A stretch of DNA of 32,000 nucleotides from an uncultured archaeon (GCA_964591795.1 CAZQEL010000002.1:1-32000), one strand, 5' to 3'; positions 3,335 to 19,521 are shown, numbered from the stretch's first letter. The notes: generated by a model from the letters alone, not told the origin. Numbers and translations: made by a program.

Positions 3335-3418
3335 AATTATTTTAATAATTTATTTTATTTTTATTATAAAAACCTAGTTTGATTGGTTTTTATTTGTTTT
3401 GGTGTTTATTTTTTATTT

Positions 3419-4003: not shown

Positions 4004-4293
4004 ACTATTCCGAAGAATTTTAAAACAAGCATAACTCCAAGTCCAGCTGGACCGAATATAGCTGTTATTACAAGTGTAATTAAAAAAGGTAATTTTATTT
4101 TTAAAACATAATATAAGAATAATAAAGCAACTACTCCAATTATACTATTTACAATTACGTTTTTTAAAAATTTAATTAATATTACTGTAATTATAATTAA
4201 AATTACACCGTAAACTAAAAGCATTGGATCAAATGCAATTATTTTAGTTGTACTTTCTTTTGTAACTTCAGTTGCTAAAAATAATAAATTCAT
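4000..4293 (-). CDS. Small integral membrane protein, BofA-like
   Basis: 97 aa with three hydrophobic spans. 'NSIIGVVALLFL...ITLVITAIFGPAGLGVMLVL' resembles the BofA-family pattern. Its stop overlaps the HD gene stop in a shared TTAA. Confidence 0.45.
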   Translation of the reverse strand: MNLLFLATEVTKESTTKIIAFDPMLLVYGVILIIITVILIKFLKNVIVNSIIGVVALLFLYYVLKIKLPFLITLVITAIFGPAGLGVMLVLKFFGIV

Positions 4294-4404
4294 ATTTTTT
4301 CTTTTTTTCTTTATTCTATAGATATTATTAAGGGATATTAAAAATATATATGTTTTGTTTTAAACCGTTTTGTTTAAATAACATATCTATTAACAATTAT
4401 TTAT

Positions 4405-5295
4405 ATGGCTATACCAAAAATACCTATTAGATTTATAAAAAAACCAATTGAAACATATGTGCGTCCTAAATTTAACTTACATGTTTCAAAGAAAGGACGA
4501 ACTGTAATTTTAAAAGAAAGAATTCTTGCAAATATTAAAAAGTCTAGATTTTTGCCACTTAAACGAAGTACAAATCTTTTTGATATTTTAAATAAAAAAA
4601 TCTTTGTAAAAGAATCTTTTCAAAAAGTAGATGTTTTTCAATTAAAAGATTATTTAAAACAAAGAAAGCTAGTTTCCTGTATTCCTGAAGTTTATGGTTC
4701 TTTAAAGCTTAAAAGTGGTAATGTTTATATTTTTTCAAAGTTTGTACCTGATTCAATTGAATTGTGTGATTATTTAAAAAAACTTAAAACAAAGAAAGAT
4801 GTAAAAAAACTAAAATTTGAAGTTAATCAAATAGGTGATAAACTAATCACCGCAGGATTACTTCCTTGGGATTTTAAATTAAAACAATTCTTTTATAGCC
4901 CTAGAAATAAAAAAATATATCTTTGTGATAATGCTGTTGCTTTTTATAACCCAAAAGTACTTTTAATGTATTATAAGAAAGCAAACTTAGAGGTACCTTC
5001 AAAACTAAGAAGGCTTAATCTATTATTTTCTTTACATCCTATTGAATTAATTTTAGAAGGTGCAAGAATGGCTAGGCGTAATTTAAAGAAAGAAACTATT
5101 TTTTCTGCAGATGAAATGACTGGTAAACTTAATTCCTTTAGAAAGAAAGGACGTAAGTTAATTGAAAGAGACACAGATAAAATCATTCTAAATACAATTA
5201 ACTATTTTAATTCTTTATCATTAGGCACAAAACAACTAATTCAAAGAGAAGTTTTAAAGGATGCTTTAAAGGAAATAGATCATTATAGTAGATAA
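4405..5295 (+). CDS. Lys-rich hypothetical protein, possible atypical kinase-like fold
   Basis: Long ORF with no competing frame. 'WDFKLKQF' matches the D-x-K-x-x-N catalytic-loop pattern with N replaced by Q, and is followed by 'KKIYLCDNA' (DFG-like Asp). The function is an inference only. Confidence 0.45.
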   Translation: MAIPKIPIRFIKKPIETYVRPKFNLHVSKKGRTVILKERILANIKKSRFLPLKRSTNLFDILNKKIFVKESFQKVDVFQLKDYLKQRKLVSCIPEVYGSLKLKSGNVYIFSKFVPDSIELCDYLKKLKTKKDVKKLKFEVNQIGDKLITAGLLPWDFKLKQFFYSPRNKKIYLCDNAVAFYNPKVLLMYYKKANLEVPSKLRRLNLLFSLHPIELILEGARMARRNLKKETIFSADEMTGKLNSFRKKGRKLIERDTDKIILNTINYFNSLSLGTKQLIQREVLKDALKEIDHYSR

Positions 5296-5400
5296 TAATT
5301 ATTAATTTTTAGTTAATATTCTTTTTTTTAAATTAATAATTCAATTTATATTATTTTTGTATTTTATAATATATATTATAATAAGGAAGCAAGATTAATC

Positions 5401-6069
5401 ATGGATGAAAGTACAAGTTTTAGAGAAGAAGAAATTAAAAAGCAATATAACTTAAAAGAATTAAGAGAAGTAATAGCTAAATCACTATCCAAAGGACCAA
5501 AAACAGATAATGATTTAAGAAAAGAAATCCCAGAAGCTAAGTATGAAGAAATTTTAAATGTTTTAAAGAACATGCTTTCTTTAAAGTTAATTAAAAAAGA
5601 TGGATTTCCAGTTAAATATTCTTTATCTGAAGGTATTTTAAAAACTTTAGAAAAAAGAAAAGAATTGTCTGACACTGATAAACACATTATTAGAGCAAAT
5701 CTAATTATTGAATCAAAATCAAACGATAAGGGTCTTTTAAGAACCGCTATGGAAAAAATACTTGATTCTTTAAAAAAGGATGAAAATTATTTTATTTATG
5801 AATCATCTTTAGCAGATATAGTTGTTCATGATGATCTTTTTTCAACATATATATCAGCTGAGGTATCTTGTTCAGATTTATTTAATTTATTTAGATTAGT
5901 TTATTTTTATGGAGTTACTTCAATAGATATAATTAAACCAGATAAACTAAACGTTCCAGTATCAGATCTTCAAAGTTCATTAACTACAATTGTTGATATG
6001 ATACATGGTTATGCTGATATGATCTATGAACTTAAAAATAAAAATGATGTTTTGTCTAAAAAAAAATAA
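5401..6069 (+). CDS. Hypothetical protein with an N-terminal winged-helix-like segment
   Basis: ATG start. 'LREVIAKSLSKGPKTDNDLRKEI...ILNVLKNMLSLKLIKKDGFPVKYSLSE' has the helix-turn-helix plus wing (hairpin) pattern. I do not recognise the C-terminal half. Confidence 0.45.
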   Translation: MDESTSFREEEIKKQYNLKELREVIAKSLSKGPKTDNDLRKEIPEAKYEEILNVLKNMLSLKLIKKDGFPVKYSLSEGILKTLEKRKELSDTDKHIIRANLIIESKSNDKGLLRTAMEKILDSLKKDENYFIYESSLADIVVHDDLFSTYISAEVSCSDLFNLFRLVYFYGVTSIDIIKPDKLNVPVSDLQSSLTTIVDMIHGYADMIYELKNKNDVLSKKK

Positions 6070-6108
6070 ATACACTTAATGGTTTTTAAAAAAAATGTAT
6101 GATTGCCT

Positions 6109-6822
6109 ATGAACTTAAAAGTAATTAAACAAAATAAATTAACTGAGAATAAAATAAGTTCTTTAAGAAAAAAGATTTCTTCAAAAAAAGTAGTTTCTGA
6201 ACAAGTACGTATTGAAAATAGACTTACTAGACAAAGAGATATTTTAAGTTTAAAAGCATTTTTACTTAGTGTAGAAAGAAAAAAGTTATCTTCAAAAGGG
6301 TTAATCAATATTTTAAAGTTAAACAAATTTAAAAAACCAGAACATTATTCTTTTGCATTCAAGAAACTTGGATTTAAAGAGCCGTTTGAGTTTGTTCGTT
6401 TGTTTTCTTATGCTGGATTTAAATCTCCTTTAAAACTCGCTAATTGTTTAAAGGTTTCAGGTTTTAAAAAATCAAAGGATTTTTCACATATTTCTAAAAG
6501 TTTAGATTTAACAGTTAAACAACAATCTAAATTTTTAAAAAAATTAGGTTTTACAAAAATTGAAGATTATGTGTCAGGTGTTTATTTAAGAAAACCAAGT
6601 ATTGGTGTTTATGCTGAGTTATTTAAAATATCAGGTTTTAAGTATCCTTCAGTAATTGCAAGTGGATTTATTAAGGCAGGATACATAACACCTAAAGAGA
6701 TTGTAAATGGCTTAAGATTTTATGGTTTTTCTGAAAAACTTACATTTTTAACTGCTCTTCAAAATGTTGGTTTTAATGGTCACGAAGCAGTAAACACTTT
6801 AAAAGAACTAAATCTTTATTAG
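6109..6822 (+). CDS. Tandem-repeat protein: basic N-terminal region plus ~10 copies of a 15-aa 'h...L...GF..P..' repeat
   Basis: G-[FY] dipeptides fall at residues 90, 105, 120, (135), 149, 178, 193, 208 and 223 of the tracked ORF, giving a 15-residue period. I place the start at ATG 6109 (track start 6103 is TTG). Confidence 0.55.
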   Translation: MNLKVIKQNKLTENKISSLRKKISSKKVVSEQVRIENRLTRQRDILSLKAFLLSVERKKLSSKGLINILKLNKFKKPEHYSFAFKKLGFKEPFEFVRLFSYAGFKSPLKLANCLKVSGFKKSKDFSHISKSLDLTVKQQSKFLKKLGFTKIEDYVSGVYLRKPSIGVYAELFKISGFKYPSVIASGFIKAGYITPKEIVNGLRFYGFSEKLTFLTALQNVGFNGHEAVNTLKELNLY

Positions 6823-6853
6823 TTTTTTTTAATTGCTTGATCAACAAGCAATT
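6823..6853 (+). terminator. T8 tract followed by a 9-bp stem / 5-nt loop hairpin
   Basis: tttttttt (6823-6830) is followed by aattgcttg-atcaa-caagcaatt (6831-6853), immediately after the stop at 6822. Confidence 0.3.
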
Positions 6854-6902
6854 ATTAGTTATTATTATAAACTAGTTCTCTTATAATTATTTTAGATTAA
6901 GT

Positions 6903-7691
6903 ATGCCTTTATTTAAATTATCTAAAATAAATTCTTTTTTTAAAAAGAAAAGTACATCTAAAAACAACAACTCTAATATAAGTAAACTTAATATAAAAAA
7001 TAAACATCTAATTACTTTTGCGCCTCATTTTGAAAAAAAAATAACAAGTGAACAAATTTCTAATTTTTGGAATAGATATTTATCAAATGGTTTTAAGGAA
7101 CTACTAAAAACTAGATTAGCTAATAAAAAAACAAATCATATCTCACAGTATAATTCAAAAATGAAGATTTTACCTTTCTCATCATCTGTTGGTGTGACTG
7201 TTAGAATTTTGGATTTTATTTCTCATGCCAAATATATTAAAAGATATGAAATTTTAAGTAAATATTTTAAAAATAAAAAATTAAGATATTCTAAAGTGGT
7301 TTTAGTTGACCTTTTAAGTTCCAGAAAATTAAATGATCTTCATTATGGTGTAGTAGAAAGAGTGTTTCCTTCTCTAACCATAAATGATTTAGAAATAATT
7401 TTAAAAGAGCATACTGTTTTCAGGCCAGAAGATGTTTACTATAATAGATATAGTTCTTCTTTTATAAATAAACTTAAAGTTAATGAAATAAACCCTGCGC
7501 TTCTTTTAAAACATCTTAAACGTGCTACTAAAGAATTATATAAAAATTCTAAAATTATTGAAAATTTTGATACTGCTAACAATAATATAGTTATTTTAGA
7601 CTATAATAAATCAAAAGGAAAATTTAAGTTTGGTTTAATTGATTTTTATGGTTCAGGTACATCCAGTTTTAGAAAAGATATTTTTAAATAG
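6903..7691 (+). CDS. Lys-rich hypothetical protein, possible atypical kinase-like fold
   Basis: The C-terminal 'IENFDTANNNIVILDYNKSKGKFKFGLIDF' resembles a kinase catalytic loop (D....N) plus an 'IDF' (DFG-like) motif, as in Kdo/RIO-type small kinases. This is an inference. Confidence 0.45.
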   Translation: MPLFKLSKINSFFKKKSTSKNNNSNISKLNIKNKHLITFAPHFEKKITSEQISNFWNRYLSNGFKELLKTRLANKKTNHISQYNSKMKILPFSSSVGVTVRILDFISHAKYIKRYEILSKYFKNKKLRYSKVVLVDLLSSRKLNDLHYGVVERVFPSLTINDLEIILKEHTVFRPEDVYYNRYSSSFINKLKVNEINPALLLKHLKRATKELYKNSKIIENFDTANNNIVILDYNKSKGKFKFGLIDFYGSGTSSFRKDIFK

Positions 7692-8186
7692 TTTTATAAG
7701 TAGTACTAAGTAACTTTCTTGATTTGCTTCTTTTATTGTACATTTAGCTAGTCTTTTCTTATTTTATTATGCTTTTAATCATTATTCCCTTACCTATGGG
7801 TAATAAGTGCTAATAAGGTTATTTTTAAAGACTTTTTATATATATTATATGTATAACTAATATAGGTATAAGAAGATGAATTTAACTAATTTTTACTCAG
7901 TGATTTTTAGACTATTTATTACTTTTAGTGAACAGTTATTTTCCGAATATATCTCTTTAAAAACCTATTGTTTATTTTTCGAAAAAGAAAGCTTTTTAAA
8001 CAAAATTGTTCCTTAATTATCTTACAGAAGACATCAGTATCCGTAATTACAAATATACAGATATTTGATCGTAAAGAATCTGCTGTATTTTTTTAACATT
8101 ATTTTTTTGTTAGAAATAAAATCAATATCAAAAAAACAGATTCAGTCTTTGTTTTAAAAAAAACAAAATAAAAAGGTGAATAAAAA

Positions 8187-10652
8187 ATGAAAAATATAAA
8201 TACGAAAAAAGTCATTGCTGGCGTTGCTGCATTAGGACTTTCTGCATTACTTGCAGGTTCCGTTGTTGCTGCTAACGTAGGTGCTGATAATTTCAGTATG
8301 AATATCACAAAAGACACAATGTTTAATAATGGTGTTCCTGCTGTTAGTGTTGTAGTTGGATCTATGGCACAACCAGTTGATGTAGTATGGGCTGGTAACA
8401 TAGCTGCTGCAATCGGAAAGAAAGCTTACACAACTGCAGGTACAGTTGGCGGAGCTGTTTTACAAGATGTAACAGTTGAAGTTGGTTCTTCAAGTTCTTC
8501 AACAATATCAGGTGATGGAAAATTAACTGATGATTGGACAATTGGTAGTACAAGTGTAACAGAAACAATAGATGATTCTGATTATTCATTACTTGGTGAC
8601 TACGATGTATCTGTTGATGATGATATATTTGGTGATGATAGTATAAATGTAAAAGAATCTATTATATTAAAAGCAAATGTTTCTTTTGATGATGATAAAG
8701 ATGTTGCTGATTTAACTGCTGCAATACCTAAATCTGCTATAGAATACGCATTAGAATTTAATCCAGGTATTAATGATGATACAAATGATTCAGGAAGTCC
8801 AGATTTTAAATTCAATTTAATGGGTAAACAATACACATTAGAAGATTATTCTAGTGGAACAATGACTTTAGTTCAAAATAAAGCTACAGTTCCTTACATG
8901 GTTGGAGATACTTTTGAAATTGAAGGTTATACAATTGAAGTAAAAACAATCCTTGAAAAATCATCTGAGGGTGCAACTTACGAATCTGAAATGTCTATTA
9001 GTAAAGATGGTTCTGTATTAGCTACAAATATTTATGCTGATGGAGATAAAATTTTTGATGATTACTTAGAAATAGATACAGAAATAGATACAGTATATAA
9101 TACTAGAGTAACTGTAATTTCTGGAACTAGTGCTAGAGTTAAATTAAAAAGCGGACAAGTAATTAAAGATTTCCCTAATATCGGAGACGAATTATGGAAA
9201 GTTGCATTTACTGGTTCTGATCCTGTTACAGTTATCACAATAACTAACGATGATTCAGATGTACAATGGAAAAATGAAGATGCATTAAGAGTTGGAGATT
9301 CAGTTGAATTACCATTCGGATTTGCTAAAGTTGAATTTTTAGGTTTAACTAAAGAAGATTCAAAGACATTAACTGTTGAAGATGGTATGTTATCATGGAC
9401 AGATTCATCAGATGATGATCACTCAATATTTTTCTATGAACAAGATACTTCTGATTATGAAACAGGAGATAATTACACTACATCTGCTGAAATAGATGGT
9501 AAAAATCTTTACTTCGATTTTAATACTACTGATGATCTGACTCAAGCAGATGTTGCAGAATCTGGTTATTTTACAGTACAATTAGAAGATGAAGATGGTA
9601 AATATTTATCAACTACAGATTCATGGTCATGGGATTCTTTAGCAGCTCCAACAGCTACTGAAAAATTCTATTTTGATGGTGATGCGGTAGAGGATACTGC
9701 AACAGATTATGTTGGTTTCACAGATATAATTGTTCCATTATATAATGATGAATCAGTAAAAATTGCATATGGTGTCTATACTAAAGAAGTATCTGATGTA
9801 ATTGAACAAATTGCAATTTCATTAAAATCAACTGCAACAGGTAGTATAAACGCAAGTCCTGTTCAAAACTGGACTGTTGGAAAAACATATTACCAAATAG
9901 GTACAGATGATTTAAATGTTTCAACTTACGTTGGTGTTTCTGATATATCTTCAATTACAGTTGCTGATGAAGATATGGATTCTATGTTTGAATTAGTTGT
10001 TACTGATAGTGTGGATACTTTTACAGCACATATTGATGCATACACTGGTGATTTAGTTAATACTGATGATTCAGATTATGATGGTGGATTAAATCAAGTT
10101 GTTTCTGCATCTGCTAATTTAGATCAAGAAAATTCAGACGATTTAACATGGGCTTATACTGCTTTCGGTACAAAGTACATGGTAGATGGTGGAATTTTTG
10201 AAGCTGAAATGCCAGAATCAAGACTTTACGGACAAATTTTCATTGGTGGAGGAATTTCTGAAGAAATGACTCTTAACGGTGGAGAATTAGTTTTAACTAC
10301 TCCCGGTACAGTTGTTTCAACAGAAGACGGTATGGTTTCAGCTAAGTTAGTTTCTTCTAATGTTATAGGATCAGACGCAACTGTTGCTATGACTCCTGCT
10401 GCATGGAATGTAAACACACAAAGATTAGTATATCTTGACAATGAAGCTATGGTTCCAACTGGTGCTAAAATAATTGTTGGTGGACATTTAGTTAACTCTT
10501 TAGCTAACGGTGTTACAAACGATTACTTAACACAAGCTGGTCAATATGTTGTAGGTTCAGATGCTACTGGTAACGTTCTTGTTGCTGGTTACACTGCTGA
10601 AGATACAGCTGACGCTGCAAAAGAATTAATAACTGTTATAGAAAACATGTAA
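8187..10652 (+). CDS. Candidate S-layer / major cell-surface protein (acidic, Thr/Ser/Asp-rich, signal peptide)
   Basis: It has an N-terminal signal peptide 'MKNINTKKVIAGVAALGLSALLAGSVVAANVGA'. The 821-aa protein is rich in D/E/T/S and lacks Cys. A GGTGA Shine-Dalgarno-like element (8175-8179) lies 7 nt before the ATG. The gene has a 495-bp upstream intergenic region and a long T-rich terminator region. Confidence 0.65.
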   Translation: MKNINTKKVIAGVAALGLSALLAGSVVAANVGADNFSMNITKDTMFNNGVPAVSVVVGSMAQPVDVVWAGNIAAAIGKKAYTTAGTVGGAVLQDVTVEVGSSSSSTISGDGKLTDDWTIGSTSVTETIDDSDYSLLGDYDVSVDDDIFGDDSINVKESIILKANVSFDDDKDVADLTAAIPKSAIEYALEFNPGINDDTNDSGSPDFKFNLMGKQYTLEDYSSGTMTLVQNKATVPYMVGDTFEIEGYTIEVKTILEKSSEGATYESEMSISKDGSVLATNIYADGDKIFDDYLEIDTEIDTVYNTRVTVISGTSARVKLKSGQVIKDFPNIGDELWKVAFTGSDPVTVITITNDDSDVQWKNEDALRVGDSVELPFGFAKVEFLGLTKEDSKTLTVEDGMLSWTDSSDDDHSIFFYEQDTSDYETGDNYTTSAEIDGKNLYFDFNTTDDLTQADVAESGYFTVQLEDEDGKYLSTTDSWSWDSLAAPTATEKFYFDGDAVEDTATDYVGFTDIIVPLYNDESVKIAYGVYTKEVSDVIEQIAISLKSTATGSINASPVQNWTVGKTYYQIGTDDLNVSTYVGVSDISSITVADEDMDSMFELVVTDSVDTFTAHIDAYTGDLVNTDDSDYDGGLNQVVSASANLDQENSDDLTWAYTAFGTKYMVDGGIFEAEMPESRLYGQIFIGGGISEEMTLNGGELVLTTPGTVVSTEDGMVSAKLVSSNVIGSDATVAMTPAAWNVNTQRLVYLDNEAMVPTGAKIIVGGHLVNSLANGVTNDYLTQAGQYVVGSDATGNVLVAGYTAEDTADAAKELITVIENM

Positions 10653-10654
10653 AT

Positions 10655-10702
10655 GTTTTCTTAAACTTTTATTTTTCTTTTTTTTCTTTTTTTTTATTTT
10701 TT
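10655..10702 (+). terminator. Archaeal-type oligo-T terminator region
   Basis: Successive T5-T10 runs (ttttatttttcttttttttcttttttttttatttttt) lie directly after the stop codon at 10650-10652. Confidence 0.5.
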
Positions 10703-10826
10703 AACAAACTTTAAAATTCTTTATCTTTATTATTTTAAAAAAATCTATTTATAAATCTTATCTTCTTATATATTTTTTAATAAGTATTTTTACTTTTTAA
10801 AATTAAATATTAAAGAAAAATTAATC

Positions 10827-11183
10827 ATGTTTACAAAAAAACAAAAAGGTCAAGTTTCAGTTGAAATGTTAATTATTTTAGGTGTAATTATACTTGTTGC
10901 TGTTGTTTTTGTATCATATTATTTATCAGTAATAAATAAAAATATAGATAAAACAAGTAATGTTCCTACTGGAGTTCAAGTTAATAATTTAATAGAAAAT
11001 AGTTTTAATAATCCTAACCTTACTTCTGCACCTACAAGTTTAGCTACTTGTGGAAATGGAACTATTGATCCTATGGAAGTTTGTGATTATCTTATTTTCC
11101 CATTTGGATTAACTTGCGATAATATAACTGGTGCAGGTACAACTTTAGTGTGTACTGATTGTCTTGAAATTACTTGTACTTAA
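10827..11183 (+). CDS. Archaeal type IV pilin-like protein (class III signal peptide) with a C-terminal 6-Cys module
   Basis: 'MFTKKQKGQ|VSVEMLIILGVIILVAVVF' has a basic leader, a KGQ cleavage-type motif, Glu at about +4 and a hydrophobic helix. The C-terminus 'CGNGTIDPMEVCD...LTCD...LVCTDCLEITC' contains 6 Cys. Confidence 0.7.
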   Translation: MFTKKQKGQVSVEMLIILGVIILVAVVFVSYYLSVINKNIDKTSNVPTGVQVNNLIENSFNNPNLTSAPTSLATCGNGTIDPMEVCDYLIFPFGLTCDNITGAGTTLVCTDCLEITCT

Positions 11184-11613
11184 ATTTTAATTATTGCTTT
11201 TTATTAAAAAAAGAAAAATCGTTTTTACTAATATTAGTTTTAATCAAATAACTAGTTTATTAAAATTAGTAATTGTTAAAAAAAAGTAATTGTGAAGAAT
11301 AAAATTATTTTTCTTCTTCAACTCTATTTTCTTTTATTCTCTTCATTGTTCTTGGAGAGAATGATTCTTTATACCATTTTTTCCAAATGATTAAAATATC
11401 ATCATAATTAGTTTTACCGTGTTCTTGAAGATATTCTTCTTTTATAAGTAATAATTTATTATGTGCATAAACTGTGTTTTTAGCTTCCAAAAGTTCAATA
11501 CAATCATTTTCGTTTGCAAAATCTACTTGGTATTTTTTTTCTTTTGCACGCATACTGATGTTATTCCACATCTCTTCAATTGTCATACCAGTAAGTTTTG
11601 ATATTTTTGAAAA
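11063..11613. repeat. Direct repeat copy A (pilin 3' end + intergenic + 3' end of ATPase gene)
   Basis: It aligns to 13388-13937 at an offset of 2324-2325 nt. The core 11189-11613 versus 13513-13937 shows only 2 substitutions by eye. The 5' part (pilin coding) is mosaic and partly diverged. Confidence 0.9.
11305..11586 (-). pseudogene. Duplicated 3' fragment (last 93 codons) of the FlaI/GspE-family ATPase gene
   Basis: The 93-aa translation is identical to the C-terminus of ORF 13629..15944 except for one residue (WNN vs WDN). Homology stops abruptly at 11613 and there is no ATPase core. Confidence 0.85.
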
Positions 11614-11665
11614 TATAGGTGTAAATTCCTTTTTTATTAACTTATATTTATATTTTTCCTTTTCT

Positions 11666-11716
11666 TGACTAGTAATACCTCCAAAAAACTCCTTTTTCTG
11701 ACTAGTATACTAGTCA
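11666..11716. promoter_or_regulatory. TGACTAGTA half-site plus a perfect 18-bp palindrome TGACTAGTATACTAGTCA upstream of the AAA ATPase gene
   Basis: The half-site is at 11666-11674 and the palindrome at 11699-11716. Both are preceded by CCTTTT(T)CT. They lie 43 nt upstream of ATG 11759 and just inside the left junction of the insert. Confidence 0.4.
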
Positions 11717-11758
11717 ACTTTTAGAAAGTATTATATACTATTCGGTTATAGTATTATT

Positions 11759-13096
11759 ATGCTTGACTGGAAAAACATAATTTTACAAAATCCTTGGTGG
11801 CAAGGTAAAGAAGATTATGATATTTCTAAACTTAAAAATAATAATTATTCTATTTCTAGAAAAAGTATACTTATAGCTCCTAATAAAATATATTTAATTA
11901 AAGGACCTAGAAGAGTTGGTAAAACTATTTTTTTAAAAAAAATAGCACAAGAGAATCCAAATATCTCTACTTATATAAATTTTGACACTCTTTTAAATGT
12001 TAGAATTTCTGAATTAATTAAAACTATCGAACATGATATTAAAATAAACAATAAAAAAATAATTTTACTAGATGAAATACAATCTTTAAAAGAAGGATGT
12101 TTATTTTTAAAATCTTTAAAAGATCTAAACTTATTAAAAGATGTTTGTGTAATTGTTACTGGTTCTGATCCAAGAGCAATTGATCGTTGTAAACAATATT
12201 TAATAGGTAGATCTGAAAAACTAAATATAATGGCTCCTTTAACTTTTAGACAATATATTTTAACTATTTTAAAAAAAGAAAATTTAATTTTGTTTAATAT
12301 TATAAATAACATTACAATTGATGCTAGTGAACCAAATTTAGATATATTTAAAAAATATAAATTAATAGAAAATTATTTTGAAGAAATTAATGATTATTTT
12401 TTTAATTATCTTTTAACAGGTGGGTTTCCTGAAGCTATTAATTCTTATTTTGAAAAAGGGTATGTAGATGAAAAGTATTATGAAGATATTGTTGAAAAAA
12501 TATTTGAAAAAATGGATAAATCTAAATCAATATCTATTTTAAAAGTTATTATTGATTCTTTATCAGGATCTATTAAATATTCTACCATTGAACAAAAAAC
12601 AGGATATTCTAGAGATACAATTAAAAGTTATTTAAAAACTTTATCTGAGCTTCTAGTTGTTTTTGAAGTTAAAGAAAATAGTTCTTCAATTCTTAAAAAG
12701 TTTTATATAAAAGATCCTTTTATTATCCATTCAATTGCTAATTTATATAAAAATACAAATTATTTTGATCAAAGTAAACAACTTTTATTTAATGAACAAA
12801 AATTAGGTGTTTTTGCAGAAAATATTGTTGCTAGTCATTTACATAATCTTTACAATCTCGATCTTTCTTATTATAACGTAGATAAAAAAGAAATTGATTT
12901 TATTGTTTTAAAAAAAGCAATAGAAGTAAAATATAGGAACACATTAGTTAAACCAAATTATGTTGATTTTATAGATGAATACTTGATATTATCAAAATCA
13001 GTTTTGCCACCCGGAGATGTTATGATAGAAAATAGATTAGTTATACCTGTTTGTATTTTTTTAAGTCTTTTGGAAGTTCCAAAATATTTTTTGTGA
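11759..13096 (+). CDS. AAA+ ATPase of the COG1373 type (AAA_14 + DUF4143-like)
   Basis: It has Walker A 'GPRRVGKT' and Walker B 'ILLDEIQ'. It also has the 'LLTGGFPEA' motif and a C-terminal 'EIDFIV' segment characteristic of this archaeal/bacterial ATPase family. Confidence 0.75.
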   Translation: MLDWKNIILQNPWWQGKEDYDISKLKNNNYSISRKSILIAPNKIYLIKGPRRVGKTIFLKKIAQENPNISTYINFDTLLNVRISELIKTIEHDIKINNKKIILLDEIQSLKEGCLFLKSLKDLNLLKDVCVIVTGSDPRAIDRCKQYLIGRSEKLNIMAPLTFRQYILTILKKENLILFNIINNITIDASEPNLDIFKKYKLIENYFEEINDYFFNYLLTGGFPEAINSYFEKGYVDEKYYEDIVEKIFEKMDKSKSISILKVIIDSLSGSIKYSTIEQKTGYSRDTIKSYLKTLSELLVVFEVKENSSSILKKFYIKDPFIIHSIANLYKNTNYFDQSKQLLFNEQKLGVFAENIVASHLHNLYNLDLSYYNVDKKEIDFIVLKKAIEVKYRNTLVKPNYVDFIDEYLILSKSVLPPGDVMIENRLVIPVCIFLSLLEVPKYFL

Positions 13097-13313
13097 TTTT
13101 AAATGGGTTTAAATTCAATTGTATTTAAAATATTTTTTTTATTTTTTTTATTAATAAACTGATTAGTTGAATTATTATAATACTTAATTTTAGGAGTAAT
13201 TAGTATTTGTTCATAATAATGAATAAAAAATAGTGTATTTTGTTCACCCCTCTTGATCAATTTTAAAACTTTTTGTTTATATATATCTTTTATAGATTAA
13301 GATATATTGGTAA

Positions 13314-13508
13314 AACTGTTCTGTTATTACAATTATTTTTAATTTAATAGATTTTGATTTAATTTCAACTAATTATATAAATAAAGTTATTGATCCTATG
13401 GAAGTTTGTGATGATACTAATTTTCCAATAGGTATTACTTGTACTTATGTTGTTAGTTCTGGTACAACTTTAGTGTGTACTGATTGTCTAGAAATTACTT
13501 GTAGTTAA
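13314..13508 (+). pseudogene. Promoterless, 5'-truncated pilin paralog fragment (C-terminal Cys module only)
   Basis: The open frame from 13314 has no Met or class III signal peptide. '...VIDPMEVCDDTNFPIGITCTYVVSSGTTLVCTDCLEITCS*' is homologous to the C-terminus of pilin 10827..11183. Confidence 0.75.
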
Positions 13509-13937
13509 TTATAATTATTGCTTTTTATTAAAAAAAGAAAAATCGTTTTTACTAATATTAGTTTTAATCAAATAACTAGTTTATTAAAATTAGTAATTGT
13601 TAAAAAAAAGTAATTGTGAAGAATAAAATTATTTTTCTTCTTCAACTCTATTTTCTTTTATTCTCTTCATTGTTCTTGGAGAGAATGATTCTTTATACCA
13701 TTTTTTCCAAATGATTAAAATATCATCATAATTAGTTTTACCGTGTTCTTGAAGATATTCTTCTTTTATAAGTAATAATTTATTATGTGCATAAACTGTG
13801 TTTTTAGCTTCCAAAAGTTCAATACAATCATTTTCGTTTGCAAAATCTACTTGGTATTTTTTTTCTTTTGCACGCATACTTATGTTATCCCACATCTCTT
13901 CAATTGTCATACCAGTAAGTTTTGATATTTTTGAAAA
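13388..13937. repeat. Direct repeat copy B
   Basis: This is the partner of 11063-11613. It overlaps the pilin fragment, the intergenic spacer and the genuine 3' end of the ATPase gene. Confidence 0.9.
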
Positions 13938-15944
13938 GATTTCAGAATCTTTAAGTGCATCTTCATTTAAAACAAGTGTATCTTTAGCAGCATCGTATTC
14001 CATTAAATTAAGAATACCTCCTTCTGATTCTGGATCTGTATTCCAATGTTTACGTACTTCTGTTATTTGAACAATTCTTTTATGACTCTTAAGTGAGCCT
14101 TTAAATCTAATTGGCTTAGCTACAACAATAATATCTGTTGCTTTAAATGAAGTGGTAGGTACTCCTAAATCATTAACTACACGATCCCACACAGCATAAG
14201 CTGAGTCAGCGTGTATGGTTCCCATAACTACATTCCCTGCAGCACCAATTCTCATAGCTTCATATAGTACTTTTGCTTCAACTGACCTTACTTCTCCTAC
14301 AATTAATGCAGAATCACCTAATCTAAGAGCTGTTCTAAGTGCATCTTCAGGTTTCATTTCAGTTGTTGCTGTTTCTCCAGTTCCACCAATGGCTGATCTT
14401 GTTTTAAGTCTTTGAGCATTAAAACCAATATCTTTCATATACATTATTGGTAGTTCTAAAGTGTCTTCTTGAACAATTATTCTTGCATTTTGTAAAATTT
14501 CAAGCATTAAAGCAGTCATTAATGATGTTTTTCCTGCACCACGTGATCCTGCTACTAAAAGAGTTGAATTGTTATCAATAAAAAAACTTAATAAACCAGC
14601 TGCTAATGGGTTTAATGAGTTTACATTTATTAGTTGTGGAAGTGTCCACGGTGTATCCTTATGTAATCTAAATGCAAATGCAATACCGTCTGTTGCTAAA
14701 GGATGACCAATAATTGCAATTCTTGTGTTTAAATCAGGCATATCAAAATCAAGAACAGGATGTGCATCATCAAATGGTCTTCCTGACATTGCTCTTATTT
14801 TTCCAACAAAACTTTCAGCGTCTTTTTCTGGATAGTGTATGTTTGTTTGACACTGTCCATATTTTGAATGAACTACGTATATTGGTTTTGCTCCTAGTGG
14901 AGAATCTAAATATACATCAGTTAATTGTCTATCTGATAATAATAATTCTAAGATACCATAACCAATAGTGTATCTTGTAACTATTTCTGATAGTGAATAA
15001 ACATCATCAGGTGATAATTCAATACTATATTTTTTAGCAATATCAATTATTGTTGATTGATATATTCTTTGGAAATATTTTCTAGTACTCTCTCCTGTTG
15101 TAAGAGTTACTTTTCCTGGTTTGTAATTAGCAACAGTATCTTTTGTTTTTGTTAATACAAAATAATGATCTGGAGACAATGTATATTCAGGTGGATTAAT
15201 TAAATAAATATATTCTACTTTTTCTGGATGTCTAAATATTTGTACTGATGTGTTAAGTACTTGGTATTCATCAATTAACTCTAAAGTATCCATGTCTTTA
15301 AAAGTTAATTTTGATCCAATAAATGCTGGTTTTATTTCTACATCAAATATTGTTCTATAGATGTCTGTAACTTCAGAAAAATCAGTTATTTTTAATAAAA
15401 TTGGTTTTATTTTTTTTAAAAATGTAGTTTTTTCATACATTTCTTTAAGTCTTAAAAGATGTTTTGTATTTTGTGTAAAACAGATTTCACAAGGTTGACC
15501 GTTTCTCTCTTGTGCTCGGTTTTTTGTATTTTCTATTTCTTTTAAAAGGCTAATGTATGAAGCTATTGGATCATAGGACAATAATTCTTTTGCAAATTTA
15601 ATAATGTTATTATGTCTTTCTGGATAACATTCATCACAGTCAATTTCTTTAACACCTAAGTGTTGAGATACCCATACTGCTCTATTTTCAAACTCTAAAA
15701 GTAAATTCACCATTTCTTTTAAATATTTTGTTTGTTCTTCATTATAATTTCTTTCATAAACTTCAGCTAATATAATTTCATCAGCATCAACAGTTTCTAG
15801 TATTTTCATTGCATGATATCTACATCTAGGATCTTCAGCAATGGATGTATTATAAGGGCAATTTCTACAATCAAAAACTAGTTTTTTTTTAGAGCCTTCT
15901 GTTGTAACAACATAATCTCCAACTGTGAATTTTCCTATTTTCAT
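13629..15944 (-). CDS. Type IV pilus/archaellum-type secretion ATPase (FlaI/ArlI/GspE/VirB11 superfamily) with a long Cys-containing N-terminal extension
   Basis: It has Walker A 'GSRGAGKTS', 'IIVQEDTLEL', 'LIVGEVRSVEA' and 'GTIHADSA' (His box), which are the canonical T2SSE motifs. The N-terminal ~320 aa carry the clusters CRNCPY...CRYH, CDECYPERH and CEICF. Confidence 0.8.
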   Translation of the reverse strand: MKIGKFTVGDYVVTTEGSKKKLVFDCRNCPYNTSIAEDPRCRYHAMKILETVDADEIILAEVYERNYNEEQTKYLKEMVNLLLEFENRAVWVSQHLGVKEIDCDECYPERHNNIIKFAKELLSYDPIASYISLLKEIENTKNRAQERNGQPCEICFTQNTKHLLRLKEMYEKTTFLKKIKPILLKITDFSEVTDIYRTIFDVEIKPAFIGSKLTFKDMDTLELIDEYQVLNTSVQIFRHPEKVEYIYLINPPEYTLSPDHYFVLTKTKDTVANYKPGKVTLTTGESTRKYFQRIYQSTIIDIAKKYSIELSPDDVYSLSEIVTRYTIGYGILELLLSDRQLTDVYLDSPLGAKPIYVVHSKYGQCQTNIHYPEKDAESFVGKIRAMSGRPFDDAHPVLDFDMPDLNTRIAIIGHPLATDGIAFAFRLHKDTPWTLPQLINVNSLNPLAAGLLSFFIDNNSTLLVAGSRGAGKTSLMTALMLEILQNARIIVQEDTLELPIMYMKDIGFNAQRLKTRSAIGGTGETATTEMKPEDALRTALRLGDSALIVGEVRSVEAKVLYEAMRIGAAGNVVMGTIHADSAYAVWDRVVNDLGVPTTSFKATDIIVVAKPIRFKGSLKSHKRIVQITEVRKHWNTDPESEGGILNLMEYDAAKDTLVLNEDALKDSEIFSKISKLTGMTIEEMWDNISMRAKEKKYQVDFANENDCIELLEAKNTVYAHNKLLLIKEEYLQEHGKTNYDDILIIWKKWYKESFSPRTMKRIKENRVEEEK

Positions 15945-16094
15945 GATTTATCTTATTTTTATTTATTTCTAAAATATTATATACTAAAATAGTGGTCTAT
16001 AGATTATTTAAATCTTTTTATTTATTGTTTGTGAAATTCAATTTATTTTATTATGTGTTAATTTTAGATTGAAAAATATTCTTTTGAGCTAAAG

Positions 16095-16144
16095 TATAAC
16101 TTACCCTGGATATTAAGAAATTGGTTTGTCCAGGGTAAGTTATA
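16095..16144. repeat. Perfect 16-bp inverted repeat with an 18-nt spacer (TATAACTTACCCTGGA-N18-TCCAGGGTAAGTTATA) upstream of Fic
   Basis: The arms 16095-16110 and 16129-16144 are exact reverse complements. The core TTACCCTGGA/TCCAGGGTAA recurs downstream of the same gene. Confidence 0.8.
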
Positions 16145-16170
16145 TAAATCCTTTCACTCTATATATTTAT

Positions 16171-17154
16171 ATGGCATATATATATGTTAAGCAAATTGGT
16201 TCTAAAAAATATTATTATTTAAGAGTTGATAAAAGGGTTAATGGTAAGAAAATCGTAAAAGATATTGCCTATCTTGGTTCTGATTTATCTAAAGTAGATG
16301 TAAAAAAACTAATTAGTTCTTCTAAATATGGTAAGGAGATAACTAAAAGTTATAAACAAATAAATCATCTAATTACTTCTAACTATTATTATAGGAAAGC
16401 AGAGCTTTTAAAATATAAAAAAAACACTTATTTAACTAAAGAACAATTAATACGATTAAATGCTATTAGTTTTCATTTTTCTTCAAATTTTAAAAAATTG
16501 CATCAATTAACTGCTGCTGATTTTTTAAATAATTTTGTAATTTCTTATACTTATAATACTACTTCAATTGAAGGAAATACAATTGCTCTGGCTGATGTTA
16601 AAAAAATATTAACTGATGATTCAATTTATTTAAAAAATAAAACTTTAAGAGAGATTTATGATTTAAGAAATACAAAAGATACTTTTAATTATATTTTTAA
16701 AAACACTCTAAAATTAAGCCTTAAGGTTATTATTGATATTCATAAAAAATTAATGAAAGATGTTGATGATAGAGTGGGTTTTAGAAATTTTGATGTTAGA
16801 GTTTTTAAATCTCATTTTAAGTCTTCTCTTTATTTTAGGATTGATAAGGAAATTAACGATTTACTTTCTTGGTTTAATATATCTAAAGAAAATATTTTTG
16901 TAAGGGCAGTTATTTTTCATCATAAATTTGAAAAGATACATCCTTTTGGAGATGGTAATGGACGGACAGGAAGAATGTTATTAAATTTAATTTTATTAAA
17001 TAATAATTTACCTCCTTTAATTATTACTAAGAAAAACAAAAAATTTTATTTTGATTCACTTTCAATTGCAGATAAAAAAGAAGATTATTCATTTTTAATT
17101 TCTTTTTTATTAGATGAGTATGAAAAAGGTTATTGGCAACATTTTATTTCTTAA
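16171..17154 (+). CDS. Fic-domain protein (AMPylase/adenylyltransferase family)
   Basis: It carries the canonical Fic motif 'HPFGDGNGRTGR' (HxFx[DE]GNGRxxR). I place the start at ATG 16171 (MAYIYVKQIG...); the track ORF begins at an upstream TTG inside the hairpin. Confidence 0.8.
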   Translation: MAYIYVKQIGSKKYYYLRVDKRVNGKKIVKDIAYLGSDLSKVDVKKLISSSKYGKEITKSYKQINHLITSNYYYRKAELLKYKKNTYLTKEQLIRLNAISFHFSSNFKKLHQLTAADFLNNFVISYTYNTTSIEGNTIALADVKKILTDDSIYLKNKTLREIYDLRNTKDTFNYIFKNTLKLSLKVIIDIHKKLMKDVDDRVGFRNFDVRVFKSHFKSSLYFRIDKEINDLLSWFNISKENIFVRAVIFHHKFEKIHPFGDGNGRTGRMLLNLILLNNNLPPLIITKKNKKFYFDSLSIADKKEDYSFLISFLLDEYEKGYWQHFIS

Positions 17155-17170
17155 TAAGGATTGTGTGTTT

Positions 17171-17210
17171 TTACCCTGGATAAACTTATTTTTTAAATGT
17201 CCAGAGTAAG
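17171..17210. repeat. Second copy of the hairpin (TTACCCTGGA-N19-TCCAGAGTAA) downstream of Fic
   Basis: The arms are 17171-17180 and 17200-17209 with one C/A mismatch. The arm core sequence is the same as in 16101-16140. Confidence 0.7.
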
Positions 17211-17247
17211 ATTGTAATTTTTGTCCTTTTTTTAAATTAACATTTAA

Positions 17248-17277
17248 AGATATATTTTAGATATCTTTTAGATATCT
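17248..17277. promoter_or_regulatory. Putative RHH-antitoxin operator: AGATATCT palindromes phased at 11 bp
   Basis: The sites are AGATATAT (17248), AGATATCT (17259-17266) and AGATATCT (17270-17277). They are spaced 11 nt apart and lie 30-60 nt upstream of ATG 17307. Confidence 0.45.
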
Positions 17278-17306
17278 TTGAATATGTGTTGTTTTATAAT
17301 TATATT

Positions 17307-17558
17307 ATGGATGAATTTATAGTTAGATTAAAAGGTAAGCCAAAAGAATACCTTGATATTCTACTTAAGGAAGGATATTTTAATACCAAAAGTGAAATTG
17401 TAAGACATGGTATTTTAGCTCTTGCTAATAAATACAATGTAGAACAAGATTATGTTGTAGATAAAGATGAACTAATAAAAGTAGGTAAGGCTGTAAAAAG
17501 AGAATTAAGAGATATTCAAAAAAAAAAAGTAAATTATATACTGAAGATGAATTTTTAG
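17307..17558 (+). CDS. Ribbon-helix-helix (CopG/RHH) antitoxin-like protein, apparently frameshifted at an A11 run
   Basis: 'FIVRLKGKPKEYLDILLKEGYFNTKSEIVRHGILAL' has the beta-alpha-alpha RHH pattern. After the A11 run (17518-17528), the +1 frame reads 'SKLYTEDEFLELFPHLKKVK*' and ends at 17590, 9 nt before the toxin start. Confidence 0.55.
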   Translation: MDEFIVRLKGKPKEYLDILLKEGYFNTKSEIVRHGILALANKYNVEQDYVVDKDELIKVGKAVKRELRDIQKKKVNYILKMNF

Positions 17559-17599
17559 AATTATTTCCACATTTAAAAAAAGTAAAATAGTGGTATTTA

Positions 17600-17821
17600 T
17601 TGTATGATTATAAGTTAACTGAATCATTTAAAAAAGATTTTGAAAAATTAGATGTTTCTTTTCAAATTATTATTTTTAAAAAAATAAAATATATTCTTTC
17701 GAATGATATTTCAAGAAAGCATTTAAAATATGGTTATCCTTATTTTGTATTAAAACTTAACATTTCTTCTAGACTTGTTTGTATGATTAAAAATGGTGTT
17801 CTTCTTTATAATTTATTTTAA
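17600..17821 (+). CDS. RelE/ParE-superfamily toxin-like protein (short)
   Basis: The N-terminal 'YDYKLTESFKKDFEKL' is typical of RelE/ParE/YafQ-type toxins. It sits directly downstream of the RHH gene. It starts at TTG. At 73 aa it may lack the usual C-terminal catalytic residues. Confidence 0.45.
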   Translation: MYDYKLTESFKKDFEKLDVSFQIIIFKKIKYILSNDISRKHLKYGYPYFVLKLNISSRLVCMIKNGVLLYNLF

Positions 17822-17854
17822 GAAAACTTATTGTTTTAAGTTTGTTAAAATTAA

Positions 17855-18985
17855 TTATTTTATTTTTTTAATAACTTCTTCGAAAAATAATTTAATTAAA
17901 TAACCTAAACAAGGAGATGAGATGTAATTTGTGACTTCTGATATTTTTATCCATTTAAAATTAATGTGTGCTGGGATTTTTAGTTCTTCAGAATCTGTGG
18001 TAACATAGTAATATTCAGTATATATTTTTTTAAATGTGTTTTCTGATTTTTCGTACCAGTGGTGGCAACCGCCCATTTTTTTTTCAATTATTTTTAAATT
18101 AGTAAGACCAGTTTCTAATTCAATTTCTTTTTTAATAACTTTAAGTGATTTTTTTATTTGTTTTTCTGATGGTTTTCCTTTTGGAAAACTCCAAAAACCA
18201 CAACTGGTTTTATTGTCTTCAAGTAAGAGTATTTTTTTAATTTTAGGATTGTATATTATTTTTCCTTTTGCATAATTAAATTTTATTTTTAATAATTTAT
18301 TTTTTATATATATGTCTTCAAGATTTGTTTTATTTAGAGTTAATTCAAATTTTAAAATTTGATTTAAAATTATATCTTTATTAATTTTATTGTAATTTTT
18401 AATTTTTGAAAGCATTTTTTGTGTATCTTTAATATCTACTTTTAATTGATTTAAAAGTCTTGCATATTTATCTAAATTGTAATACATTTTATATTTGTTA
18501 TTTTGAAAATAATTTTCTAAAAACTCAATTCTTATTTTTGAAAAAACACTTGTAGTTTCAAATGAGAATTCAAAATAGGTTTTTGATTTAAGTAGGTTTA
18601 AAAGATCATCTTCAATTCTGTACCCATATATAAAAAAGCTATTAAGTATGAAATCATAAAGATAAGGGTAAAATAGATCTGTGGATATATTTTTTAAATT
18701 ATTTTTATCTTGTGCATTTATTTTAAATTCAATTTCTATTTGGTATTTCTTACTTACATCTTCTTTAATTTTAGCTAAAGCATTAATATCTGTTTTTTTA
18801 AGTTCTTTATTTTTTGTAAAAACCATAACATTAAGGTCACTTTCTTTAGGAGTTACTTCTCCTCTTGCAAAAGAACCGTGAATATATACTGATTTTATAA
18901 ATGGAAATTTTTTCTTATTAAAAATTGTTTTTAAATAGTTTGTTAATGTATAATATTCTTCTAGATTTTTATTTATAATATCCAT
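17855..18985 (-). CDS. Fusion protein: N-terminal Pol-beta-superfamily nucleotidyltransferase + helical linker + C-terminal Nudix-like domain
   Basis: 'IHGSFARGEVTPKESDLNVMVF' matches the G[SG]-x9-13-DxD NTase motif, here with DLN in place of DxD. The C-terminal 'WSFPKGKPSEKQIKKSLKVIKKEIELETGL' is a degenerate Nudix box: KEIELETGL versus REUxEExGU. Confidence 0.5.
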   Translation of the reverse strand: MDIINKNLEEYYTLTNYLKTIFNKKKFPFIKSVYIHGSFARGEVTPKESDLNVMVFTKNKELKKTDINALAKIKEDVSKKYQIEIEFKINAQDKNNLKNISTDLFYPYLYDFILNSFFIYGYRIEDDLLNLLKSKTYFEFSFETTSVFSKIRIEFLENYFQNNKYKMYYNLDKYARLLNQLKVDIKDTQKMLSKIKNYNKINKDIILNQILKFELTLNKTNLEDIYIKNKLLKIKFNYAKGKIIYNPKIKKILLLEDNKTSCGFWSFPKGKPSEKQIKKSLKVIKKEIELETGLTNLKIIEKKMGGCHHWYEKSENTFKKIYTEYYYVTTDSEELKIPAHINFKWIKISEVTNYISSPCLGYLIKLFFEEVIKKIK

Positions 18986-19188
18986 ATCTTCTCAATATTT
19001 AGATTGTTATTTATATATTTTCTAGTATGTTTTTTAAAGGTATTTATTTTAGTGGTTTTTATTAAAACAAATTTTTTGTGTACACATAAAAAGATGATCT
19101 GTTTATAAATATTATGTACTTTCATATTTTGAATACAAAAAAGAAACTTCTTTTTAAAAAAGAGATAATCATACAAGGATGGTACACA

Positions 19189-19521
19189 ATGAACAAAAAA
19201 TATTTAATTGCAGGTATACTGTTAGTAATAGCTGCATCTTTTCTCTTAGCTGTTCAAATGAATTTTTCAGCTAATAAAAACAATAGTGATTTTATTGCAA
19301 AAAAAGATAATACAGTAAACATGTATGTTTTTTCAAAAACAACTTCTTTTGATCAATCACTTTATTTTGCAAATCAAAACCAAATTAAAAAGTGTAAATC
19401 TAGTCCACGTTGTATTGGTAACACTTGTGGGATTTGTAATACAGCATCATATGGTGCATTTTCTGCAAAACTTGCAAAAGATATTAACTGGGTAACAAAA
19501 GGTGTTATTACGTCTGTTTAA
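19189..19521 (+). CDS. Small secreted or membrane-anchored Cys-containing protein
   Basis: I place the start at ATG 19189 (MNKKYLIAGILLVIAASFLLAV, a signal/anchor sequence), preceded by AAGGATGGT. It has the C-terminal cluster 'CKSSPRCIGNTCGIC'. Confidence 0.45.
   Translation: MNKKYLIAGILLVIAASFLLAVQMNFSANKNNSDFIAKKDNTVNMYVFSKTTSFDQSLYFANQNQIKKCKSSPRCIGNTCGICNTASYGAFSAKLAKDINWVTKGVITSV

Follow-up and report, generated by a model that had tools for sequence, protein, structure and literature searches.

How does a candidate defence gene come to lie between two near-identical copies of the end of a neighbouring pilus gene? This question is raised by a stretch of 32,000 nucleotides (nt) from an uncultured archaeon (GCA_964591795.1 CAZQEL010000002.1:1-32000), referred to here as the window, in which positions are counted from the first nt. 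A segment containing a pilin 3' end, an intergenic spacer and the 3' end of a gene for a FlaI/TadA-like T2SSE ATPase is present at 11063-11613 (copy A) and again at 13388-13937 (copy B), and the unique middle between them (11614-13387, 1774 nt) carries a gene of the AAA_14-DUF4143 type. The G+C content is about 24% along the whole window. The organism is placed in the Iainarchaeia (Diapherotrites, DPANN) by its ATPase, whose relatives in Iainarchaeia metagenome-assembled genomes (MAGs) show 71-91% amino-acid (aa) identity, with best genome matches of 91% and 89%.

A sequence-only reading of the window had taken the arrangement for the product of Campbell-type integration of a circular element. 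Here, the window was compared with loci and contigs of relatives or sibling strains (L numbers) and with their proteins (P numbers). The account that we favour, to which we assign a probability of roughly 0.6, is that the repeat is a real segmental duplication in a hypervariable surface/defence island, produced by homologous exchange and an illegitimate join between two versions of that island.

Anatomy of the repeat

The repeat was recovered both by a repeat finder and by direct alignment, at the positions first noticed, with a period of 2324 nt. Its core, 11189-11613 against 13513-13937, is identical at 423 of 425 nt, and the two differences that had been seen by eye are the only ones (11557 G / 13881 T and 11565 T / 13889 C). 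The preceding pilin part is older and diverged: 104 of 126 positions match between 11063-11188 and 13388-13512, with one 1-nt indel, in a pattern of 24 identical bases, about 55 nt at roughly half identity and 47 near-identical bases. In copy A, the core consists of a 116-nt spacer and an orphan ATPase 3' end; in copy B, the spacer lies between the 3' end of a second pilin allele (pilinB') and the tail of the intact ATPase gene. Each copy has its native neighbours on a single side.

The repeat content had been described correctly, and the ATPase part extends over the last 103 codons of the gene. The orphan fragment lies at 11305-11613 on the minus strand (tblastn, 99% to ATPase residues 669-771), and the 93-codon open reading frame (ORF) at 11305-11586, which starts from an internal Met, is therefore a part of it. 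The single AAA+ gene and the palindrome described for the 1774-nt middle were likewise recovered, and a remnant of an AbiEii toxin gene is added to them.

The two flanks of the AAA gene have an exact match of up to 369 nt in common; among control genes (non-AAA ORFs, 250 aa or longer, of the window and related loci), no such match exceeds 24 nt, so the flank match is far above chance. A simple full tandem duplication is ruled out, as the periodicity spans 2874 nt and not 4648 nt. A long target-site duplication is also ruled out, since identity is only 82% in the pilin part and the join interrupts upstream sequence that is conserved.

Recurrence of the junctions in other assemblies

Independent contigs were found by exact-protein look-ups. 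L001 (ENA ERZ27316756, MEGAHIT k141) covers window positions 11535-19451 with 4 mismatches, L002 (Logan SRR8862237) covers 11584-13541 and is identical, L020 (JGI 3300039187) covers 11337-13480, L019 (JGI 3300039186) covers 11201-13381 plus 13340-13526 at its other end, and L017 (ERZ27316756) covers 2351-11303. Both junctions, 11613/11614 and 13387/13388, are reproduced in L001, L002, L019 and L020. In L001, real 141-mers span the junction. Because both junctions recur in four other assemblies, the arrangement is no one-off chimera, a possibility that the sequence-only reading had named.

An ambiguous assembly path is a subtler explanation, which we consider quite improbable. Under it, the chromosome would read pilin, spacer and ATPase gene in direct succession, the AAA segment would exist as a circle, a tandem amplification or part of another strain, and the window contig would thread once through a cycle of the assembly graph. 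Indeed, a repeat-insert-repeat chromosome and an empty site plus a circle yield identical de Bruijn graphs; L017 stops within the repeat, one end of each of L001, L002 and L020 falls there too, and L019 goes round the cycle exactly once. However, the junction between the ATPase fragment and the AAA gene is present in five assemblies, including the 141-mers of L001, and in the window each of the two single-nucleotide polymorphisms (SNPs) of the core goes with the correct exit. The linkage on the junction side (copy A) recurs in L001, L019 and L020. In addition, a circle of 2.3 kb that has no replication gene would not last from sample to sample, and the AAA orthologues are chromosomal at the same locus in relatives.

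L019 (2955 nt) has the order pilinB' - p195 - ATPase fragment / AAA gene - start of pilinB', where p195 denotes a protein family described below. Its ends fall in the same 42-nt stretch, differing at 4 of 42 positions and sharing 22 exact bases. This order could equally fit an excised circle, a tandem copy or one turn of a graph cycle, and it bears no closed-circle signature.

Residency of the AAA_14-DUF4143 gene

The gene in the middle (11759-13096, plus strand) is intact and, by Pfam and PADLOC, encodes a COG1373 protein of the PDC-S01 type. An AAA_14 domain (PF13173, E=6.3e-21) is located at the N terminus and a DUF4143 domain (PF13635, E=7.2e-16) at the C terminus, and the PADLOC models for PDC-S01 match at 3.5e-26 at best, others more weakly. 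The protein carries the Walker A motif GPRRVGKT at residue 49, the Walker B motif LLDEIQ at residue 103 and a PD-(D/E)XK-like EIDF..IEVKY at residues 378-392; against solved structures it gives a marginal P-loop match only. DUF4143/COG1373 is listed among the PD-(D/E)XK families (PMC3424549). According to PMC12988326, PDC-S01 combines an ATPase with a nuclease, is abundant across Archaea and is an unvalidated candidate for defence; an enrichment in AbiE, SoFic and candidates of this type is reported there for DPANN genomes. Judged by its domains, the gene is classed as a PDC-S01-type candidate defence gene.

Orthologues of the gene lie beside the same ATPase gene in L018 and L023 (83% aa identity each), L021/L022 and L024 (80%), L025 (64%) and L005 (58%), and those directly adjacent to it are convergent with it. 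They occupy the same interval in 7 related Iainarchaeia lineages; in L018, L021 and L024, a pilin can be seen beyond the orthologue. In L005, the identities to the window proteins are 58% for the AAA protein, 53% for the S-layer protein, 54% for the RPA-like protein and 80% for the ATPase. The region upstream of the window gene (11614-11758, plus strand), aligned with L018, L021, L022 and L005, contains a conserved TTTTAGAAAG..TATATA box at 11719-11737 that is invariant in these four, and the TATA-proximal upstream region is common to L018, L021, L022, L023 and L005. Since the orthologues lie beside the ATPase gene, diverge as their neighbours do and have a conserved upstream region, the AAA gene is long-term cargo of the island and not a new arrival. 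As to the synteny of the locus, relatives do carry the AAA gene beside the ATPase gene, but they lack the duplication: the orphan ATPase piece and the second pilin are absent from all AAA-orthologue loci examined, and the pilin/ATPase-tail duplication was not found in any lineage with an AAA orthologue, one of which has a separate 53-nt repeat.

Just upstream of the TATA-like box, a dyad (GACTAGTATACTAGTC) is located at 11700-11715, with a half-site at 11667-11674. Its position is kept between lineages and its sequence differs, which suggests a putative autoregulatory operator co-evolving with the helix-turn-helix (HTH) region of the protein. A dyad or tandem palindrome precedes a TATA-like box at every AAA_14-DUF4143 gene examined, with sites at window 11667-11715, L005:14672-14735, L023:38-99 and L011:18513-18570. 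The family is also found in several copies per locus: four AAA_14-family paralogues lie in 13 kb around the ATPase gene at L018:8509-21293, and two AAA_14-family genes stand in tandem in L021.

A hypervariable island between the S-layer and ATPase genes

Every relative has a gene content of its own between the S-layer gene and the ATPase gene. In L003, this interval holds an AAA-like gene, a pilin gene, a ribbon-helix-helix (RHH) gene and a frameshifted AbiEii/AbiEi pair; in L004, a pilin gene, small ORFs, a p195-family gene, an RHH gene and a PIN gene; in L005, AbiEi, AbiEii, p191, the AAA orthologue, p208 and an HTH gene. By this comparison, the island composed of S-layer gene, pilin, variable cargo and pilus ATPase is hypervariable among the relatives.

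The p195 family comprises basic proteins of about 190-208 aa with the N-terminus MP..K..FKEKR and no Pfam match. Its genes are located at L019:274-861, L016:972-1589, L024:5071-5664, L004:6233-6802, and L005:12653-13279 and 14814-15389. A p195-family gene recurs beside the ATPase gene and is usually convergent with it, the convergent order being the commoner arrangement in relatives, and both spacers of the window are without it. At L003:16528-16624, a 19-nt unit (AATAAACTAATAGATAAGG) is present in four tandem copies beside a stretch of N, in the interval from the S-layer gene to the AAA-like gene.

Nature of the two borders and proposed origin

The right border of copy A falls on an A-run common to both parental sequences (11610-11618, GAAAA/TATAG; also in L001, L002, L019 and L020). 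The window reads GAAAA/TATAGG, the ATPase gene continues as GAAAA/GATTTC, and L018 and L021 read AAAAAAT/TATAG. To the left of TATAG, L018 and L021 stay homologous for at least 70 nt, and the window has the ATPase fragment there. Because this fragment replaces the upstream sequence homologous to L018 and L021, the right border is an illegitimate join on the AAAA run, by which the AAA gene lost part of its ancestral upstream sequence. The left border lies in homology between two pilin alleles, with identity becoming perfect from about 11191, right after the stop codon.

In the account that we favour, the middle 1.8 kb is old cargo, consisting of the PDC-S01-type gene with its own promoter and operator, the AbiEii stub and pilinB'. 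The new event would be the placing of a second copy of the pilin 3' end, the 116-nt spacer and the last 103 ATPase codons upstream of the AAA promoter. One join would be homologous: the full-length pilin gene, pilinA, would have recombined with the pilinB' block, either within the pilin 3' end or immediately behind it. The other would be illegitimate, connecting the equivalent of position 13937 to 11614 on the AAAA run. The partners would be two island versions, either on sister chromosome copies, in sibling strains or on a circularised fragment, and neither a transposase nor an integrase nor a foreign replicon would be involved.

As to the exact recombination route, we infer four candidates. 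(a) A break between pilinA and the AAA promoter may have been copied from pilinB'-spacer-ATPase and then end-joined. (b) DNA of a sibling strain with a compact pilinA-spacer-ATPase order may have entered, its left end held by homology and its right end attached by an illegitimate join. (c) Sister copies may have undergone an illegitimate exchange that yielded a tandem of 11614-13937, followed by a deletion between pilinA and pilinB'. (d) A circle closed at 13937/11614 may have integrated in the Campbell manner. Ectopic templated repair, tandem duplication with deletion, and Campbell integration are inseparable from sequence alone. All four routes require a pre-existing pilinB'-spacer-ATPase arrangement, and route (d) also requires an empty recipient. 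As no such recipient was found, generic homologous plus illegitimate recombination is ranked above strict Campbell integration.

Several points weigh against the favoured account. Two pilins, or a compact pilin/ATPase pair, are found in no relative, so the postulated parents were not observed. The microhomology of the A-run is 4 nt long in a genome of 76% A+T and carries no statistical weight. The p195 gene within the repeat of L019 is absent from both window copies, which calls for at least one further event under any model. Every short-read contig except the window breaks off or turns in a cycle within the repeat, so that the window contig is the one contig to connect pilinA through the orphan fragment with the AAA gene; L017 is consistent with this link. 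Finally, the polymorphisms shared between copies could partly reflect exchange between strains rather than within one genome.

Strict Campbell integration and other mobile elements as possible origins

The strict form of the Campbell proposal, which we regard as unlikely, is that a 2.3-kb circle of AAA gene - AbiEii stub - pilinB' - spacer - ATPase tail, closed at 13937/11614, entered a strain with pilinA-spacer-ATPase by a single crossover in the shared 0.4-0.55 kb. The topology is an exact fit, each copy being native on one side only, and two pilin alleles would come naturally from two strains. Strain-level recombination in the region is rampant, and L019 has the circle-type order of pilinB' - ATPase fragment / AAA gene with its ends in the same 42 nt. 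However, those ends differ at 4 of the 42 positions with 22 exact bases in common, so that L019 bears no closed-circle signature, and its p195 gene is absent from the window copies, so that the window is not one step from L019. The empty site, with a pilin gene directly convergent on a full ATPase gene, was sought in contigs and in 25 related loci. It was found in none of the 25, nor on contigs with the exact pilinA or S-layer protein; this test is weak because the 24-kb contig of a sibling ATPase allele (P0156) lies outside that set. The donor would already have to hold the arrangement that the intragenomic model needs, and thus a second genome type is added. The circle would lack genes for replication or integration, and no counterpart of it was found among the plasmids and viruses searched. 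The insert is also not foreign to the locus, given the orthologues in the same interval in 7 lineages, and contains pseudogene debris and no mobility genes. Of the Campbell proposal, therefore, the repeat-insert-repeat anatomy, homologous recombination and the exchange between copies stand, and the arrival of the AAA gene on a circular element is not supported, its orthologues being resident.

The absence of a transposase, an integrase and a short target-site duplication, as first stated, was borne out by domain scans and repeat searches. No transposase or integrase domain was found in the window ORFs scanned, and no inverted repeat at 11614/13387 and no short target-site duplication were detected. 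No plasmid or virus counterpart was found in PLSDB (blastn), among INPHARED phages (tblastn with the AAA protein) or in IMG/VR (protein and junction 30-mer). A transposon or insertion sequence is ruled out by the lack of a transposase and of terminal inverted repeats, and by a repeat of 425-550 nt with a diverged part. An integrase-type integrative element is ruled out, with no integrase domain in the ORFs scanned and no tRNA gene in the 32 kb, and so is an origin from a plasmid or virus, with no match in PLSDB, INPHARED or IMG/VR.

Sequence exchange between the copies

The copies have exchanged sequence since the junction arose. Position 13889 (C) encodes Asp686 of the ATPase, which is ancestral, being present in every outgroup. 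Asn686 (N686) is found in all orphan copies, including that of the window, and in the full-length gene of L001 (P0032). The sibling full-length allele P0156, from a 24,271-nt JGI contig, equals the window ATPase over residues 1-713 and has 5 differences in the last 60 residues, which fall in residues 714-759 (window 13629-13800). Three of its residues, E714, V726 and Q729, are found in the orphan fragment of L019 (P0154), which keeps N686, and both copies of the window have K714, I726 and E729. All four combinations of copy type and patch type thus exist on a base-identical junction. Since an identical junction means a single origin, these combinations require transfer between an orphan and a full-length copy. 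The position of the differences in P0156 marks the ATPase 3' end as the crossover zone of the island.

Similar patchiness is present on the pilin side. L019 and L020 have five SNPs within 37 nt at 13339-13375, compared with one or two in the other 1.7 kb. L019 has a 590-nt p195 gene between its pilin fragment and its ATPase fragment, and both window copies have the same p195-less spacer. A pilinA-type patch (13490, 13504) lies inside the pilinB'-type copy of L019, i.e., in the reverse of the silent-to-expressed direction. The view that the L019 core is 9% diverged was rejected, because its mismatches represent the replaced spacer with the p195 gene and a 5-SNP patch and are not spread over the ATPase fragment. 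By these variants, the region is a recombination hotspot whose repeats evolve in concert, and loop-out of the middle segment is plausible. RadA-type recombination between the 425-550-nt repeats could delete the middle scar-free, leaving pilin and ATPase intact, and such a loop-out would make the defence gene a gain/loss polymorphism.

A possible cassette mobilised by its own gene

A quite different proposal is that the AAA_14-DUF4143 gene is a mobile cassette. Its ATPase and PD-(D/E)XK nuclease would cleave DNA and thereby bring about insertion, in the course of which the 3' end of the convergent gene on its downstream side would be copied to a place upstream of the cassette's promoter. A second lineage has the same topology. 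The AAA orthologue of L005 stands between two perfect direct copies of 53 nt (13251-13303 and 14760-14812), which form a terminator-like hairpin (ATGCTTTTTCAAAAAGCAT). The repeat holds the last 9 codons of the convergent neighbour p208 as well as the final codons of the AAA gene with its stop. From the upstream copy to the ATG, the distance is 122 nt; the corresponding distance in the window is 145 nt. The massive expansion of the AAA_14 family, with several paralogues per locus and four in L018, and the classing of DUF4143 as PD-(D/E)XK (PMC3424549; PMC12988326) also fit the proposal. However, five other orthologue contexts have flanking repeats of at most 17 nt, which is within the control maximum of 24 nt; the repeat lengths of the window and L005 are tenfold apart; and conserved cassette ends are lacking. 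In addition, the window junction cuts the conserved upstream region, the unit contains unrelated pseudogene debris, and the orthologues are syntenic and as diverged as the neighbouring genes. We consider self-mobilisation highly improbable. Flanking repeats as a hallmark of AAA_14-DUF4143 genes are ruled out, as they are found only in the window, in L005 (53 nt) and in a weak 26-nt case among about 17 family members. The L005 parallel is a lead and not a rule, and it hints that the bracketing of an AAA gene by copies of its neighbour's tail may recur.

Other genes of the island and its surroundings

The conserved left flank of the island is the S-layer protein gene (8187-10652, plus strand; Pfam S_layer_C, E=2.4e-14), which is located at the same place in L003, L004, L005, L011 and L018. 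Directly after it, in the ancestral position, lies pilinA (10827-11183, plus strand), a full-length archaeal type IV pilin-like gene (Class_IIIsignal, E=1.6e-6) with a Cys-rich C-terminal domain. PilinA aligns with the pilins of L003, L004, L018, L021 and L024, and DNA homology with L018 extends from the S-layer 3' end into it. A protein search with pilinA gave no match beyond the query itself and no expressed pilin with pilinB'-type loops.

PilinB' (13314-13508, plus strand), a 5'-truncated second allele whose 3' end lies in copy B, corresponds to the truncated pilin fragment that had been noticed there. It has an open frame of 64 codons, compared with a mean stop-to-stop distance of 9 codons in shuffled local sequence, no signal peptide and no first Cys, and an internal ATG at 13398 is its sole start codon. 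The pilin-derived sequence probably begins near 13341 and has a deletion of 30 nt. The codons that differ from pilinA comprise 14 that change the amino acid and 4 with synonymous changes only, and the differences cluster in two loops between invariant Cys residues. The open frame and the loop-clustered changes indicate that pilinB' derives from a functional pilin allele and not from random decay.

The conserved right flank is the full-length FlaI/TadA-like ATPase gene (13629-15944, minus strand; 771 aa; Pfam T2SSE, 6.7e-17), which matches NCBIfam FlaI at 1.8e-44, under the cut-off of that family. In exact-protein look-ups with the window ATPase, the 93-aa orphan and P0156, no record matched. 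Among pilus-ATPase homologues, P0123 and P0148 (1260-1290 aa) carry the intein domains PF14528 and PF14890, and one of these two comes from a Candidatus ainarchaeum MAG.

Between the AAA gene and pilinB', the AbiEii C-terminus remnant (13099-13260, minus strand) matches the AbiEii fragment of L003 (BLASTP, E=4e-8) and the AbiEii of L005 (1e-4), the latter of which matches Pfam at 4.4e-22. This stub of 53 codons (KIKYYNNSTNQFI) abuts the stop codon of the AAA gene. AbiEi/AbiEii pairs, intact or frameshifted, are present in the same island of L003, L005 and L024. On the other side of the ATPase gene, a defence/toxin-antitoxin-type cluster occupies window 16126-18985, with a Fic protein (SoFic/PDC-S04), an RHH protein with a 73-aa partner and a nucleotidyltransferase (NTase)-NUDIX fusion that matches PDC-S09/PDC-S07. 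Surface-glycosylation genes are located farther outward from it. No tRNA gene was found in the 32 kb and no Rfam element matched in the window.

Comparison with known systems and wider meaning

Which known system does the locus resemble? Flexible genomic islands of the replacement or additive kind have conserved flanking genes and are exchanged by homologous recombination. The island described here is similar in its variable defence, toxin-antitoxin and surface cargo between the S-layer and ATPase genes, which differs per relative, and in the concentration of divergence at the flank edge, in the last 60 ATPase residues of P0156. It differs in that illegitimate resolution would have left a 0.55-kb duplication and an orphan gene tail instead of a clean replacement. 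Campbell integration and homology-facilitated illegitimate recombination, known from bacteria, leave a direct repeat around added DNA, and the window likewise has a repeat around added DNA with one homologous and one illegitimate border. In contrast to those cases, no circular element or donor was found here, and the 'added' gene has long been resident at the locus. To our knowledge, there is no documented case of either process in DPANN archaea. With PDC-S01 as defined in PADLOC (PMC12988326), the AAA gene has in common that it is a single-gene fusion of an AAA ATPase and a PD-(D/E)XK domain and that it lies among AbiE, Fic/SoFic and further defence candidates, as is described to be typical of DPANN genomes; the defence activity of PDC-S01 is unvalidated according to that source.

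In Neisseria, pilin variation at pilE arises from silent pilS copies. PilinB' is similar in being promoter-less and 5'-truncated, with a conserved Cys framework and variable loops. A downstream repeat is common to it and to the pilinA locus, and natural variants show patchy mosaicism. The differences are that one silent copy is present here, that an internal deletion removes its first Cys, and that no initiating structure is known. It is a long shot, argued by analogy, that pilinB' and the 425-nt repeat act as a pilS-like silent cassette swapping the Cys-bounded loops of pilinA, with the same repeats making the PDC-S01-type gene a reversible, scar-free on/off cassette. If true, this would mean antigenic variation of a pilin in a host-attached, virus-exposed DPANN archaeon.

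In summary, the locus looks like the outcome of ordinary recombination between island versions, which is an event of a known kind and no new kind of element; what is new is the extra copy of pilin tail, spacer and last 103 ATPase codons upstream of the AAA gene. For annotation, it follows that a 93-aa 'hypothetical protein' of this type is an orphan ATPase tail, and that contigs from the region break or cycle for structural reasons. If the favoured account is true, the locus would be a clean, small natural example of gene-content turnover in the reduced genomes of DPANN archaea without dedicated mobile-element machinery, in which conserved surface-structure genes serve as recombination arms for single-gene defence-candidate cargo. 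A mis-resolved exchange would then leave behind a repeat that evolves in concert with its parent gene and that can delete the cargo again.

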